This document shows positions 3,537-10,342 of a stretch of 10,342 nucleotides of DNA, piece after piece. The translations under genes were made by a program, and so were the position numbers. This stretch comes from a virus. How positions within the stretch are numbered: position 1 is the stretch's first letter; the number at the start of each line of letters is the position of its first letter. The notes under the pieces are model-generated. The model saw only the letters and a program-made list of their open reading frames with translations. It did no database searches and had not been told where the DNA came from. Where the stretch lies: the UHGV virus genome UHGV-0155330. The stretch is one strand, 5' to 3'.

Positions 3537-4422
3537 CACCGAAGACCCGACCATGACAGGTAAGTTACGGTCGGGAGCTATCAAGCGTTTTAAAGCCTGC
3601 CTGAAGAAAGTCGCGGATCCGTATATTGCCATACTGGACAGAATACAATATACCCTGGCTGTTAATAAGAAGTACACCTTCCAGATCTACATTGACGAAT
3701 TGCATGATTTGCTGGAAGACGCCAGCGACATGATTGATGAAATATTCGAGTTAACAGACCCTGAAAACTTCTGGTTCTGGCAGAATTACGTGAAGGTGGC
3801 ATATCAGCGCGGCACTTCACAGGAATATGCCAACCTCTCTAACCAGTCAGTCACATATTCCAGAGCTTATCCAGAAGTGTCGGCGGTATTAACCAGTCAG
3901 ACATATCGCACACGCCTTGCCCTGGTCCGTACCCGTGTATTTGAAGAGATGCGCGGGCTTACAGCACAGATCAAGAAGGATATGGCTCGCCGATTAACTG
4001 AAGGCATGGCCCGTGGCTTAAACCCACTGGAAATAGCACGCACATTGCAGCAGGAAACGCAATTGCCGCTATACAGGTGTAAACGTATTGCCCGTACTGA
4101 AATATGCACAGCGTTACGCACAGCTCGTATGGATGAGGCAGAGGCCGCATCGGATGAGCTTAACTTGCGCACTATGCAGATGCACATTTCTGCACTGTCA
4201 CCGACTACCAGGTTATCACACGCACAGCGGCACGGGAAAACGTACACCATAGAAGAGCAGCGCGAATGGTGGAGCAGATCCCCAAATTCAATTAACTGCA
4301 AATGTAGCACTATTACCGTGATGGTCGATGAATCTGGTAACATATTAAACAAACGAATATTAGATCGGGCGCAAGAAAACTATAAGGTTGCGCACGCTAA
4401 ATATGGCGAAGATTGGGAGTAA
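3526..4422 (+). CDS. Phage Mu F-like / SPP1 gp7-like minor head (head morphogenesis) protein
   Basis: Motifs characteristic of the Mu F family: RIARTEICTALRTAR, HISALSPTTR, AQRHGKTY, NCKCS. Start is ambiguous: in-frame ATGs at 3478, 3526 and 3553. I chose 3526, which overlaps the portal stop (3534-3536). Confidence 0.75.
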   Translation: MPSNTEDPTMTGKLRSGAIKRFKACLKKVADPYIAILDRIQYTLAVNKKYTFQIYIDELHDLLEDASDMIDEIFELTDPENFWFWQNYVKVAYQRGTSQEYANLSNQSVTYSRAYPEVSAVLTSQTYRTRLALVRTRVFEEMRGLTAQIKKDMARRLTEGMARGLNPLEIARTLQQETQLPLYRCKRIARTEICTALRTARMDEAEAASDELNLRTMQMHISALSPTTRLSHAQRHGKTYTIEEQREWWSRSPNSINCKCSTITVMVDESGNILNKRILDRAQENYKVAHAKYGEDWE

Positions 4423-4427
4423 AAACC

Positions 4428-5717
4428 GTGAATAAAGAACTGATTCAGGTTAATACCAAATTAACCGCTAATACCATCCGCCGGGAAACATATAACGGTC
4501 GCGAACACATTGTGGTTCCGTCGTATACGTTGCCCTTTAATATCGTTATGAATCGGGAATATTACCCGGAAGCTGAAATCATTGCTAATTATCAATCTTT
4601 GGAAGGTACGCTTGCGCCGCTGGGTCATCCTACCGTAGACGGTGAATTTGTTTCCGCATTTAGCCCGGAAGGTCTGAATATTGGCTTTTGCGGAGCGTGG
4701 AACAGAAATGTTGAATTACGTGGCAACCGTGTTTATGTGGAAAAATGGGTGGATGTTGAAACCGCCAGCCATTCAGAACAAGGTCGCGAATTATTAAGCC
4801 GACTCGAAGCACTGGAAAAAGGTGAAAGCAAAGATCCGATCTGGTCATCTGTTGCCGTATATCGTCAGCGTATGCCAGCTACTGAAGAAATGAAAGCACA
4901 GGGTGCTGACAGCGTGGTTAAAATCATGTCAATCGACCATGACGCCATCCTACTTCATGAACCGCCAGCCGCATCGCCAGAACAGGGTGTTGGCCTGATG
5001 GTTAACACTGACCAGGCGAAGCCGTTAATGGCGGTGGCAATGAAAGAAAACAGCTATCGCACGCTTGAGAAACAATTAACTGACGCGGCGCGGGAATTAT
5101 TCCCTGATGCCGATTATGTGTATGTGGTGGACTTCACTGATAAAGAAGTGACGATCGCCACTAATACTGAAAGTGCTCAAGTTTGCACGTATGAAAAACA
5201 GGCTGATAAAATAATTCTCAATAATGGCGAGCTTGCAACCAATGAGGAAAGTAAATCGTGGTTCGCTCAGTTCGCTGAACACTTATCTAATCTTTTCTCC
5301 CTGAATGAAAAAATTAAGGCCAATAAATCGGAGGGTGAACCCATGCCTTTGACCAAAGAAGAACGCGCCGAACTGGTAAAAGAAATTAACGAAGGTTTAG
5401 CCGCTAATATCGCCAGTGCAGTAGCTGAAGCACTTAAACCAGTACAGGCAAGCGTTGAAGAATTACAGACCAACCAAAAAGAATTGCAGACCAACCAGAA
5501 AGCGATTAAAGAAGAGATCGCAGCAAACGCAGATAAAGAAGTAGCAGAAAAACGCGCCGCAGTAGCAAAAGTACACGGCGAAATTGTTGCTAACGCATTA
5601 AGTGGTGAAGCGTTAGAAGCAATGTTTAAATCCCTGGGCAAAGCAGCGCCGATGGCAACCAACGCAGCAAGCGAAGGTAAAAAAGGCGAAGTACCAGACT
5701 TTAACACTTATTTCTAA
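4428..5717 (+). CDS. Head maturation protease / scaffolding-type protein with C-terminal coiled-coil (putative)
   Basis: Large ORF between the Mu F-like gene and the capsid genes. The C-terminal third is Ala/Glu/Lys-rich with heptad-like repeats (ELQTNQKELQTNQKAIKEEI), typical of scaffold domains. Preferred start is GTG 4428, preceded by GGGAG (4415-4419); the ORF track's TTG 4413 overlaps the upstream stop. Whether the N-terminal part is a protease cannot be decided by eye. Confidence 0.55.
   Translation: MNKELIQVNTKLTANTIRRETYNGREHIVVPSYTLPFNIVMNREYYPEAEIIANYQSLEGTLAPLGHPTVDGEFVSAFSPEGLNIGFCGAWNRNVELRGNRVYVEKWVDVETASHSEQGRELLSRLEALEKGESKDPIWSSVAVYRQRMPATEEMKAQGADSVVKIMSIDHDAILLHEPPAASPEQGVGLMVNTDQAKPLMAVAMKENSYRTLEKQLTDAARELFPDADYVYVVDFTDKEVTIATNTESAQVCTYEKQADKIILNNGELATNEESKSWFAQFAEHLSNLFSLNEKIKANKSEGEPMPLTKEERAELVKEINEGLAANIASAVAEALKPVQASVEELQTNQKELQTNQKAIKEEIAANADKEVAEKRAAVAKVHGEIVANALSGEALEAMFKSLGKAAPMATNAASEGKKGEVPDFNTYF
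5460..5501 (+). repeat. Imperfect 21-bp tandem duplication (GAATTACAGACCAACCAAAAA / GAATTGCAGACCAACCAGAAA) inside the scaffold coiled-coil region
   Basis: Two adjacent 21-nt units differing at 2 positions, in frame, encoding ELQTNQK twice. Confidence 0.9.
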
Positions 5718-7226: not shown

Positions 7227-7245
7227 TTAGAACGCTTCCTGTAAC

Positions 7246-7275
7246 TCCCCGGCGCGATGCCGGGGATTTTTTTTT
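7246..7275 (+). terminator. Rho-independent terminator downstream of the major capsid gene
   Basis: Perfect 8-bp GC-rich stem TCCCCGGC (7246-7253) / GCCGGGGA (7259-7266), 5-nt loop GCGAT, followed by 9 consecutive T (7267-7275). Confidence 0.85.
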
Positions 7276-7293
7276 GTATGTGGAGCAAACAAA

Positions 7294-8231: not shown

Positions 8232-8672
8232 ATGCCTATTAAGGGCGTCAAACGTGTCAGGGAGCGATTAAAGCAGGAGCTAAAGGAAATCACAGACAAG
8301 AAAACTTATGAGGTGTTATGGCGAGTAGGGATGCTGGCTGGTGGCTTCGCGGCGAACATGACCCCAGTTGACACGGGTTTTTTAATTAACAGTCAATTTC
8401 AGTATATAGGTAACACGGCGGAGGGTATGCAATTACGGCTGGGATATACGGCCCGTTACGCTGAATGGGTGCATGACATGCCGGGTAAATTAAAAGGCCA
8501 GCCGCGCAAACATTTCGGCAAAACCAGAGAGGGCGTCGAATTTGGCGGCGGCACTGGTAAGGGTAATTATTGGGACCCAAACGCGGAGCCGGAATTTTTG
8601 CGTAATGCATTTGAAGATCCAAACAACGCTGACGATATTTATAAAGAGATTGTAGAAGGTTACAAAACATGA
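8232..8672 (+). CDS. HK97 gp10-like neck / tail-completion protein (putative)
   Basis: 146 aa. N-terminal segment with PVDTGFLINS resembles the DTG(x)LxxS signature I associate with the HK97 gp10 family. GGGGG precedes ATG 8232. Recognition is from memory of the family pattern, not a search. Confidence 0.45.
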   Translation: MPIKGVKRVRERLKQELKEITDKKTYEVLWRVGMLAGGFAANMTPVDTGFLINSQFQYIGNTAEGMQLRLGYTARYAEWVHDMPGKLKGQPRKHFGKTREGVEFGGGTGKGNYWDPNAEPEFLRNAFEDPNNADDIYKEIVEGYKT

Positions 8673-9055
8673 AACGCAGCGAAGTATATGACGAAATAAG
8701 GGATTGGATTAAGTCCCACGGGTACGACGAAGGTTATATTTTGCAGGCCCGTTTCTGGAATGAGCGATCCAATTCTAATAACGACAGGTACATTGTCATA
8801 CAGCAAAACGGCGGTGCGGCTGGTGAAGAAGCAGTAACCCGTGACTATTTCCGCATCCTGGTTATTTCAGCGCGTAACGATGCAAATATTAGTGAAGTGG
8901 AAGATCTCGCCGACGCAATACGCCAAAGTATGATAACCGAGTATAAAACTGATAAAATTACACACATGAAACCAATTGGCGCTATTCCTGCAATGCAGAC
9001 AAGAGAAGGGCGCTTTATTTTCACCGTAGCTTTCCAAACCATCATATCTAGATAA
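8669..9055 (+). CDS. Putative tail terminator / tail completion protein
   Basis: 128-aa ORF whose start overlaps the upstream stop (ATGA at 8669-8672). Lies immediately upstream of the major tail protein gene, the usual position of the tail terminator. Confidence 0.35.
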   Translation: MKRSEVYDEIRDWIKSHGYDEGYILQARFWNERSNSNNDRYIVIQQNGGAAGEEAVTRDYFRILVISARNDANISEVEDLADAIRQSMITEYKTDKITHMKPIGAIPAMQTREGRFIFTVAFQTIISR

Positions 9056-9068
9056 GAGGTAAATAAAC

Positions 9069-9545
9069 ATGTCTCAGACTTGTGATAAAGGTTCGTTCTT
9101 AGGCCGCGACGTTGCCGTATTTTACGCTATCGCCTGCCCTAATGCGAAACCTGAAGAAAGCGCTTATAAAGCGTTAGGCATGATGCGTGGCAAATCTCTT
9201 TCCGTAGAATGGGAAACCGCAGACGCCACCGCTGACAAATCAGCAGACTACACCAAAGAATCAATGGTCACTTACAAATCTGTTTCTTTCTCAGGTGACG
9301 GCGTATCCCGTACTGAAGAAATTCATAATCAGAAGGCACTTAAACGCCACGTTATTAACCCTGGCGAAACAACTGGTGCGCAGCCTTACGTCTGGCTGAA
9401 ACTTGTTTCACCGCTCGATGTAACCGAAGGTCCGTTCCTTTGCACCTCCTTTAAAGAAGAGGATCCTCACGACGATGTATCAACCTGGTCCATTGAGTGC
9501 GAAAGCGCTGGCAAGGTCACAGTTGGCGACGTTCCTGTATTGTAA
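9069..9545 (+). CDS. Major tail (tube) protein
   Basis: 158-aa ORF with a strong SD AAGAGGT (9054-9060) and optimised codons, followed by an intrinsic terminator. Size, composition and position are typical of siphophage major tail proteins. Confidence 0.6.
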   Translation: MSQTCDKGSFLGRDVAVFYAIACPNAKPEESAYKALGMMRGKSLSVEWETADATADKSADYTKESMVTYKSVSFSGDGVSRTEEIHNQKALKRHVINPGETTGAQPYVWLKLVSPLDVTEGPFLCTSFKEEDPHDDVSTWSIECESAGKVTVGDVPVL

Positions 9546-9563
9546 CAGCAAATATTAACATCG

Positions 9564-9587
9564 GGGCCATTTGGCCCCTTTATTTTT
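9564..9587 (+). terminator. Rho-independent terminator / attenuator downstream of the major tail gene
   Basis: Stem GGGGCC (9564-9569) / GGCCCC (9574-9579), loop ATTT, followed by TTTATTTTT. The next gene starts 13 nt later, so partial read-through is implied. Confidence 0.7.
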
Positions 9588-9599
9588 AGGGTGACAACT

Positions 9600-10272
9600 A
9601 TGATTCACGTTCGAACAGGACAGTTTGCGGTTGTAGTTGATGGCAGGCGTTACGAATTTAATCCCTGCTTTGCTGCAATGGCTAAGATCGGCAGTGACAG
9701 GGAACTGGTCGAATATTTCGCAACGGTTCACGGTGGCAGATACCCACAACGTTTGCCAATGGATACAGACCTCCGCAATCGCATTCTGGCGCGTTGTTAT
9801 GGTGAACTTGTGCAAACATCCATCCACGTACTGAAATGTTGCTCAGAGTGCGAAATAGGCCCGTTATTGGGCGAATGCAGCTTTACTCCTTCGGGTAAGT
9901 TAAGACTGAAACCTGGATTGATGCCAACCTGCGACGTTATCACGCTGGCGCAACACTGTATGTATCACGGTTTAATTGGTGACGGTCCAGAAGAAGACAC
10001 GGGCACAACCCAGGATGGCGAGTACAAGCCAACATTCGACATCCTTGAGTATGTTTACTCCGCCGTTGCTCACCTGGGATTGTCTGAATCTGAAGCATGG
10101 GGCATGACAATGACCGGGTATAGGGCCGCTGTACGCGCTAAAACGCCACCAGACGAAAGAAACGAGAAAGGCAAACCAAACGTTCATATAAATAAACGTG
10201 ATTATGATGAGCAAATGGGAGCGGCTAAAAGGGTGCTGGAATTGATGAAAAAACGCGAGCAAGAAAAAGCCC
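9600..10272 (+). CDS. 3'-truncated ORF in the tail assembly chaperone position; cysteine-rich hypothetical protein
   Basis: ATG 9600 (ORF track starts at in-frame GTG 9591) preceded by AGGGTGA. Native sequence ends at 10272 where the adapter begins, so the track's stop at 10293-10295 and final residues IGRAHV are artefactual. Eight Cys including CCSEC...C. Chaperone assignment is by position only. Confidence 0.4.
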
Positions 10273-10336
10273 AGATCGGAAGAGCACACGTCTGAACTCC
10301 AGTCACCTTGTAATCTCGTATGCCGTCTTCTGCTTG
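10273..10336 (+). other. Illumina TruSeq indexed adapter (index CTTGTA) read-through; sequencing artefact, followed by poly-A (10337-10342)
   Basis: Exact match to AGATCGGAAGAGCACACGTCTGAACTCCAGTCAC + CTTGTA + ATCTCGTATGCCGTCTTCTGCTTG. Confidence 0.97.
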
Positions 10337-10342
10337 AAAAAA

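Follow-up and report, generated by a model that had tools for sequence, protein, structure and literature searches.

A DUF6246-family gene next to the tail tube gene of an mEp021-like coliphage is a candidate tail assembly chaperone encoded in a single reading frame

The viral genome fragment UHGV-0155330, analysed here over its whole length of 10,342 nucleotides (nt; the window), ends in a gene of the DUF6246 family that follows the gene for the major tail (tube) protein and an intrinsic terminator and that is considered here as a candidate tail assembly chaperone gene (Table 1). The window represents the structural module for head and tail of a temperate Escherichia coli siphophage of the mEp021-like (mEpimmI) group, and it is ~90-92% identical over 10.3 kilobases (kb) to phages mEp044, mEp554 and mEp021. 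The reading frame of the DUF6246 gene opens with the ATG at 9600 and comprises 224 codons (9600-10271); the M-I-H N-terminus is common to its close relatives, and the mEp021 record carries an annotated ribosome binding site at the place equivalent to the AGGGTG upstream of this start. A first-pass annotation of the window had listed a cysteine-rich open reading frame of at least 224 codons here, and both the open frame and the eight cysteines are confirmed, as are the strings CCSEC, GEC, PTC and QHCMYH in its translation.

Table 1. Features of the DUF6246 locus and the adjoining part of the window.
Feature	Position	Strand	Remarks
Major tail (tube) protein gene	9069..9545	+	Directly upstream of the DUF6246 gene; Pfam Phage_tail_2 PF06199, E=1.5e-8
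Intrinsic terminator in the gap between the tube and DUF6246 genes	9563..9587	+	GGGGCC-ATTT-GGCCCC, then TTTATTTTT; terminator scan
Shine-Dalgarno-like AGGGTG	9588..9593	+	6 nt 5' of the ATG; read off the sequence
DUF6246-family gene, candidate single-frame tail assembly chaperone	9600..10272	+	224 complete codons plus 1 nt
N-terminal domain, residues 1-127, possible 'G-like' part	9600..9980	+	Carries all eight cysteines
Cys81 codon	9840..9842	+	Sole family-wide conserved cysteine, 140/147; adjacent columns partly Cys
Acidic linker, residues 128-145	9981..10034	+	Isoelectric point 4.05
C-terminal 'T-like' domain, residues 144-209	10029..10226	+	TAC_6 matches, hhalign, hmmsearch
C-terminal long basic helix, residues 199-224	10194..10271	+	Cut by the contig end; model helix 199-223
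Illumina TruSeq adapter and poly-A, non-biological	10273..10342	.	Exact string match

The encoded protein is a full-length, ordinary member of DUF6246 and PHROG 791 from a described phage group. It matches PF19759 (DUF6246) over profile positions 1-184 of 185 with 186.6 bits (E=5.1e-55; the Pfam gathering score is 27 bits) and phrog_791 over positions 3-226 of 227 with 219 bits (E=1e-64). The relatives in E. coli prophages are 225-227 residues long and 96-58% identical to the window protein, and in 32 complete genomes of E. coli the NCBI annotation labels the gene product 'DUF6246 family protein'. An exhaustive profile search produced 372 representatives (50% clustering, E<=1e-3), those listed being mostly of 190-235 residues, and tblastn located the family in 328 phage records from many genera (Salmonella, 137; Klebsiella, 56; Pseudomonas, 45; others), with ES18 gp17 among them. 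The window gene agrees with these members in size (~190-235 residues) and in its place beside siphophage tube and tape measure genes, the window showing the tube side only. Its protein shares the size, the conserved motifs and the position after the tube gene with ES18 gp17, mEp021 gp62, Seszw_1 gp31 and phi297 gp55; the window lineage is richer in cysteine than the other members (eight against a family median of three), and nothing essential differs. The DUF6246 gene is not discussed in the paper on the mEpimmI phages.

The gene had also been described as truncated, which is correct and has a trivial cause. The window ends in an adapter composed of AGATCGGAAGAGCACACGTCTGAACTCCAGTCAC, the index CTTGTA, ATCTCGTATGCCGTCTTCTGCTTG and poly-A, and the listed 234-residue frame (9591-10295) runs into it and so acquires a false C-terminus (...QIGRAHV, then stop). 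In the viral contig L003 (97% identical), the sequence of which diverges from that of the window at 10273, exactly where the adapter starts, the gene ends in ...GAA AAA GCC CGG TAG (...EKAR, then stop), with a hairpin next to it. Because the L003 gene continues in ...GCC CGG TAG, the window gene is short of only 5 nt, that is, its last codon and the stop. The contig break falls inside what is, in relatives, a terminator hairpin that overlaps the stop codon. The full protein comprises 225 residues and has an isoelectric point (pI) of 6.39, with a pI of 8.1 for the N-terminal domain.

The first-pass annotation expected a tail assembly chaperone at this place, and the gene indeed occupies the slot between the tube and tape measure genes in five phage lineages, as seen upstream in the window and downstream in relatives. 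In mEp554 and mEp021, the order is tube gene, terminator, DUF6246 gene, terminator, variable genes and the gene for a 782-residue tape measure protein, and the gap between the DUF6246 and tape measure genes measures 640-1275 base pairs in 47 close viral loci. The plan of tube, DUF6246 and tape measure genes in ES18 is the same as in mEp021, with three annotated morons in between. The end of the gene coincides with the start of the tape measure gene in Skatevirus Seszw_1 (gp31) and Pseudomonas phage phi297 (gp55), and the two genes overlap in locus L052, the DUF6246 protein of which is 36% identical to that of the window; in a more distant clade, the DUF6246 gene is adjacent to the tape measure gene or overlaps it in 60 of 70 loci. 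The records of these lineages have no annotation of a further chaperone candidate anywhere from the tube gene to the tape measure gene. Because the position is kept in every lineage examined, the gene belongs to the fixed content of the tail module, in the chaperone slot, and is therefore no insertion. The alternative that was raised from the sequence of the window, namely that an unrelated gene (a moron) was inserted after the tube gene by chance, could draw on the terminator in front of the gene, on the second terminator behind it in relatives, and on the true morons located directly downstream there. However, the gene is found at this position in all seven mEp-like phage records, in the 32 E. 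coli genomes and in the 328 phage records, and its place by the tube and tape measure genes is constant despite the variation of the morons around it, so that we give a chance insertion almost no credence.

The variable genes downstream of DUF6246 form a block that is flanked by terminators and consists of small genes on either strand (8256-8972 in locus L001, 8271-8995 in L002 and 5134-7649 in L216); in ES18, the block includes a DUF4041 protein. Within the tail operon, this block forms a hotspot for morons and uncouples the putative chaperone gene from the tape measure gene. The upstream side of DUF6246 shows some variation as well. In L052, an open reading frame for an Ala/Ser/Thr-rich protein of 119 residues with no family match (1695-2054) is located between the tube and DUF6246 genes. 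In the distant clade, which includes Pseudomonas phages (loci L136-L215), the open reading frame 5' of DUF6246 (for example L218 2979-3974, phi297 gp54) mostly encodes 245-344 residues, compared to 158 residues, and its last 4 nt are shared with the start of the DUF6246 gene; the product of this longer frame is presumably the tube protein with an added C-terminal domain.

An AlphaFold2 model of the protein, built from an alignment of 141 sequences (mean predicted local distance difference test score, pLDDT, 93.3; predicted template modelling score 0.80), shows two domains joined by an acidic linker. The N-terminal domain consists of a beta-hairpin, three helices, a second hairpin and a helix. 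The pLDDT dips to ~80 at residues 131-140, and the linker varies in length and sequence among the aligned members. The best-conserved motif of the family, YVYSAVAHLGLSESEAW-MTMTGYRAAVRAK-PP, is inside the domain of residues 144-209, and the C-terminal residues 192-224 have a pI of 9.6. Sequence searches of the PDB with the family profile yielded chance matches only (E of at least 0.85), and no solved chaperone structure was matched in the PDB searches.

Programmed frameshifting from G to GT counts as a conserved, near-universal hallmark of long-tailed phages. In phages of the lambda type, the chaperone encoded by gene G coats the tape measure protein, and a rare -1 frameshift adds a T domain to it. 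In lambda itself, the tape measure protein is bound both by G and by the G moiety of GT, and the T domain binds the tube protein, the polymerisation of which it initiates; the virion contains neither G nor GT, and a balanced ratio of G to GT, ~30:1, has been reported to be crucial (PMC5009743).

Several comparisons link the C-terminal domain of DUF6246 to such T extensions. A Pfam scan of the 141 aligned members returned matches to Phage_TAC_6 (PF09550; gathering score 23.4 bits) in 29 of them, always in the C-terminal part; the best of these, to residues 148-200 of member P0045, scores 25.3 bits, above the gathering score, and the same protein also weakly matches TIGR02216, 'rcc01693 family'. 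By these scores, the kinship between DUF6246 and TAC_6 is one at the superfamily level, and the window protein is no member of TAC_6. For a direct comparison with frameshift-encoded extensions, genes of Phage_TAC_11 (PF11836; gathering score 27.8 bits) were collected from their own phages, where they encode 125-147 residues and are located 3' of a PF06199 tube gene. The 58 viral TAC_11 loci, all but L098, along with L055, possess a conserved extension of ~60 residues in the -1 frame, which follows an A-run of lysine codons and ends just before the tape measure gene, in the classical G/GT layout. Comparison by hhalign of the DUF6246 family profile with 51 of these -1-frame T extensions gave a probability of 85% and E=6.2e-6 (reversed control, E=0.59), and the alignment extends end to end, from DUF6246 residues 144-209 to columns 2-65 of 66. 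In agreement, hmmsearch with a hidden Markov model of the T extensions retrieved 14 DUF6246 members at E<0.01, each match falling at least partly in the region of residues 144-209, with a best match of 0.23 on shuffled sequences. At the level of sequence profiles, these results show that the most conserved part of DUF6246 is a homologue of the frameshift-encoded T domain that is read in the zero frame. The T-type domain of a G/GT chaperone is thus represented by an in-frame homologue, which accounts better for the extra length of the protein than the unusual accessory domain that had been suggested for a chaperone at this place; the protein is indeed much longer than a typical G protein.

The relationship of the N-terminal domain to G-type chaperones is weaker. 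Matches to Phage_TAC_11 (the GTA-gp10 family) were recorded in the N-terminal region of seven of the 141 members, the best with 21.6 bits. Among them, residues 20-105 of P0133 align with TAC_11 profile positions 14-93 of 96 (E=2.3e-4), and P0177 combines TAC_11 at residues 7-45 with TAC_6 at residues 125-159, that is, in the G-then-T order. When the whole model was compared with BFVD using Foldseek, the closest fold outside the family was gp16 of the Rhodobacter phage RcapNL (E=2.6e-3, 217 columns), a protein with TAC_11 at 35.4 bits, above the threshold, followed by an in-frame T-like tail; the weak end of the same list is enriched for proteins named 'tail assembly chaperone', including N15 GT. 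Taken together, these matches suggest a weak resemblance of the N-terminal domain to the G part. In the deposited sequence of RcapNL, gene 16 (L054 10354-10926) encodes TAC_11 and the T extension in one frame of 190 residues that contains a 7-A run, whereas its relatives (up to 93% identical) have a stop after KKK and T in another frame; the in-frame arrangement of RcapNL either is a natural fusion or results from a sequencing error in the homopolymer of the deposited sequence.

With the T homologue already in frame, the programmed frameshift of G/GT systems appears to have no counterpart in DUF6246. The window frame contains no in-frame X_XXY_YYZ heptamer; the only heptamers that the scan found, AAAGGGT (10228) and AAAAAAC (10248), are both out of register, in agreement with the earlier failure to find a convincing slippery site. 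An overlapping -1 frame leading into a tape measure gene, for which a scan had been proposed, is not seen either. Both alternative frames are closed in the window gene, and in relatives they are short and unconserved: in the 47 close loci, the -1 and +1 frames beyond the stop are short and inconsistent in length, and the gene that follows DUF6246 in mEp021 and L003 is encoded by the opposite strand. The record of ES18 gene 17 bears the note 'possible +1 frameshift at 3' end of gene', but both of its alternative frames close within ~25 codons. In-frame C_CCC_CCA heptamers are present in the distant clade, where they probably arise from the codons of the conserved K-x-P-P motif, and the -1 frame of L052 is open for just 10 codons before the stop. 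A canonical G-type gene with a cryptic 3' programmed frameshift, the extension of which was lost to the contig cut, might still be imagined in view of the ES18 note, the A6 run (AAA AAA C) nine codons before the end of the window frame and the end of the window at 10272, which hides the sequence beyond. Nevertheless, the 47 loci and the opposite-strand genes argue against it, as do the early closure of the ES18 frames, the tape measure genes that start at the stop codon of DUF6246 in L052, phi297 and Seszw_1, and the presence of a T homologue in the zero frame. We accordingly rejected cryptic frameshifts, the +1 shift of ES18 included, because the alternative frames are short and unconserved, and consider a hidden extension in the window gene very unlikely. 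With no in-register site in the window and no conserved extension in relatives, there is no conserved programmed frameshift in DUF6246 genes.

The cysteines of the window protein, in particular CCSEC, had been interpreted as a sign of a metal-binding or zinc-ribbon-like module, carried by a chaperone or by some other protein. They are located at residues 23, 66, 80, 81, 84, 93, 111 and 120, all within residues 1-127, and the cysteine content of 3.57% is ~4-fold higher than in the 13 other proteins of the window (0.87%); with 1.95 cysteines expected, the Poisson estimate for eight or more is ~1e-3. Conservation was assessed in an alignment of 147 DUF6246 members with pairwise identity of at most 50%, and Cys81 is the only one of the eight that is retained across the family. 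The Cys23 column contains Ser in 128 of the 147 sequences, those of Cys66 and Cys93 are variable or gapped, Cys80 is mostly replaced by Ala and Cys84 by Asp or Glu, the Cys111 column has Cys in a single member, and the Cys120 column has Leu in 128. The pattern varies already among the relatives from E. coli, and the median cysteine count among family representatives is three. Apart from Cys81, good conservation is seen for His123 (115/147) and His158 (128/147), which could be taken to favour a metal site; however, both histidines vary independently of Cys81, and since members that keep Cys81 can have Phe, Tyr, Trp, Asn, Ser or Met in place of His123, there is no coupled set of ligands. No conserved CxxC pair was found among the 147 members. 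In the AlphaFold2 model, CCSEC is located where a long helix (residues 56-81) ends, outside any beta-hairpin knuckle, and the PDB and BFVD searches revealed no metal-binding fold. The window protein has no match to a zinc-finger family of Pfam, and only one of 141 family members shows a weak match to the ZPR1 zinc ribbon (E=0.045). Thus, neither four conserved Cys/His ligands nor a beta-hairpin knuckle or known metal-binding fold is found, and a zinc ribbon or other metal site was rejected on the grounds of cysteine conservation, secondary structure and fold searches. A four-ligand metal site is largely refuted, and the probability that we would still assign to any metal-binding module, despite the enrichment and the conserved Cys81, His123 and His158, is very low. 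Instead, the eight cysteines are a feature of amino-acid composition in the N-terminal domain that is specific to the lineage. The first-pass annotation had itself named such a result as grounds for dropping the module, namely that the protein clearly matches a common phage family (here DUF6246, E=5e-55) without conservation of the cysteines.

Combining position, domain architecture and the fate of the frameshift, we consider that the gene probably encodes a tail assembly chaperone in an unusual form, a single-frame fusion of G-like and T-like parts that would need no frameshift. For this protein, we infer the chaperone activity, the binding partners, the G-likeness of the N-terminal domain and the role of the terminator in setting a ratio. 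Under this scheme, the DUF6246 protein would do the job of lambda G and GT as one polypeptide, the N-terminal domain handling the tape measure protein and the T-like domain recruiting the tube protein. As residues 1-127, the acidic linker and the T-like domain share one frame, both parts would be present in each molecule without any recoding; the terminator after the tube gene might hold the level of the chaperone well below that of the tube protein. In the mEp021 record, which was annotated following mass spectrometry of the virion, several neighbours are labelled 'virion structural protein' and gp62 'hypothetical protein' (PMC11893012), so that DUF6246 is apparently not a virion protein, although this indication is weak and indirect.

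A number of observations weigh against a chaperone of this kind. Neither the whole window protein nor its halves match any TAC family of Pfam or NCBIfam, even when E values of up to 10 are allowed. All TAC_11 matches of the family are below the Pfam threshold, and none of them is in the window protein itself. Comparison by hhalign of the family profile with alignments of RcapNL-type TAC_11 (in local, low-mact and global modes) gave no signal, nor did comparison with lambda G and lambda T. At 225 residues and pI 6.39, the protein is not the small acidic chaperone that would be anticipated. A terminator and variable genes split DUF6246 from the tape measure gene, by 0.6-1.3 kb in mEp-like phages and ~2.5 kb in ES18, and a chaperone made solely as a fusion departs from the lambda model with its ~30:1 ratio of G to GT (PMC5009743). 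Several of these observations would fit a tail-morphogenesis protein with a role other than that of a G/GT-type chaperone, for example a factor that has no more than the T-like tube-binding module in common with chaperones and acts in tube initiation, tube termination or tape measure handling, or else a minor virion component. The robust kinship with chaperones is limited to the C-terminal ~65 residues, the N-terminal domain lacks a significant match to G-type families, the size and pI are atypical, and a terminator and morons precede the tape measure gene in two lineages. On the other hand, no rival candidate for the chaperone is present between the tube and tape measure genes in the five lineages, the fold of the full-length model resembles that of RcapNL gp16, which bears a significant TAC_11 domain, the N-terminal TAC_11 matches recur in the right register, and mEp021 gp62 is without a virion-associated label. 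We consider a different role in tail morphogenesis unlikely, albeit the most credible of the alternatives.

The proposed single-frame chaperone can be set beside two known systems. It would share with lambda gpG/gpGT the position between tube and tape measure genes, a two-part layout with a C-terminal part homologous to the T extension of another chaperone family, and apparent absence from the virion (for DUF6246, by indirect indication). It differs from them in the lack of a programmed frameshift, and hence of a G-only product and a G:GT ratio, and the DUF6246 protein is larger than G, is not acidic and has no detectable sequence similarity to G or T. The chaperones of the GTA-gp10 type, which comprise TAC_11 (PF11836) and TAC_6 (PF09550, 'rcc01693 family') and are found in Rhodobacterales prophages and in Rhodobacter phage RcapNL, resemble it in several respects: the T part is homologous, some DUF6246 members have weak N-terminal similarity to TAC_11, both are accompanied by a PF06199 tube protein, and RcapNL gp16 as deposited is likewise a single in-frame G-T open reading frame. 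In contrast to DUF6246, in which T is in frame, these systems have T in the -1 frame after an A-run (in the 58 loci except L098, and in L055). In addition, the N-terminal domain of DUF6246 exceeds theirs by ~30 residues and has an additional hairpin and helix, and it shows no significant similarity to the TAC_11 subfamily profile.

The remaining genes of the window follow a regular structural order: small and large terminase subunits, portal, head morphogenesis protein, a 434-residue protein, decoration protein, the DUF6260 capsid protein, connector proteins, the tail terminator (PF23842) and the PF06199 tail tube protein. The assignment of the tube gene is further supported by a match to PHROG 853, 'major tail protein' (E=1e-48), and its counterparts in the mEp554 and mEp021 records are labelled tail tube protein. 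The terminator behind it is annotated at the equivalent site in mEp554 (T13), in mEp021 (TERM_8) and in ES18 (after gene 16). Relatives also have an annotated terminator 3' of the capsid gene, at a place equivalent to just after 7226 (7227-7290 in the window), and the two sites together suggest attenuation behind each highly expressed structural gene. The 434-residue protein (4413-5717), the gene of which separates those for head morphogenesis and decoration, has a long and helical C-terminal part that is rich in Ala, Glu and Lys and includes the direct peptide repeat ELQTNQK ELQTNQK; it may be a scaffold-like protein.

For the window itself, these results mean that the gene is an ordinary one for its phage group, that its cysteine pattern is no functional motif and that the contig end is untrimmed adapter. 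What is modestly new is the interpretation of DUF6246 as a family of chaperones that have the T domain in frame; it would be a variant of the G/GT theme and, if confirmed, a departure from the ratio model. The idea has precedent, as the absence of an evident frameshift has been noted for other phages too, for example RcZahn (PMC8601537). More tentatively, and with the balance somewhat on the side of doubt, DUF6246 might define a large class of long-tailed phages with a hard-wired G-T fusion that have dispensed with the frameshift. Such a class would include at least 328 deposited genomes, among them those of ES18, Skatevirus, phi297-like Pseudomonas phages and the gut-prevalent mEpimmI coliphages. 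If so, tail assembly would not need a low ratio of GT to G, and another device, such as the terminator or the extra N-terminal elements, would serve instead; a permanently fused T-type domain in a widespread family would be a natural counter-example, useful for testing the purpose of the ratio. It would also provide a function for a DUF and a PHROG that are now labelled as unknown in hundreds of phage genomes.

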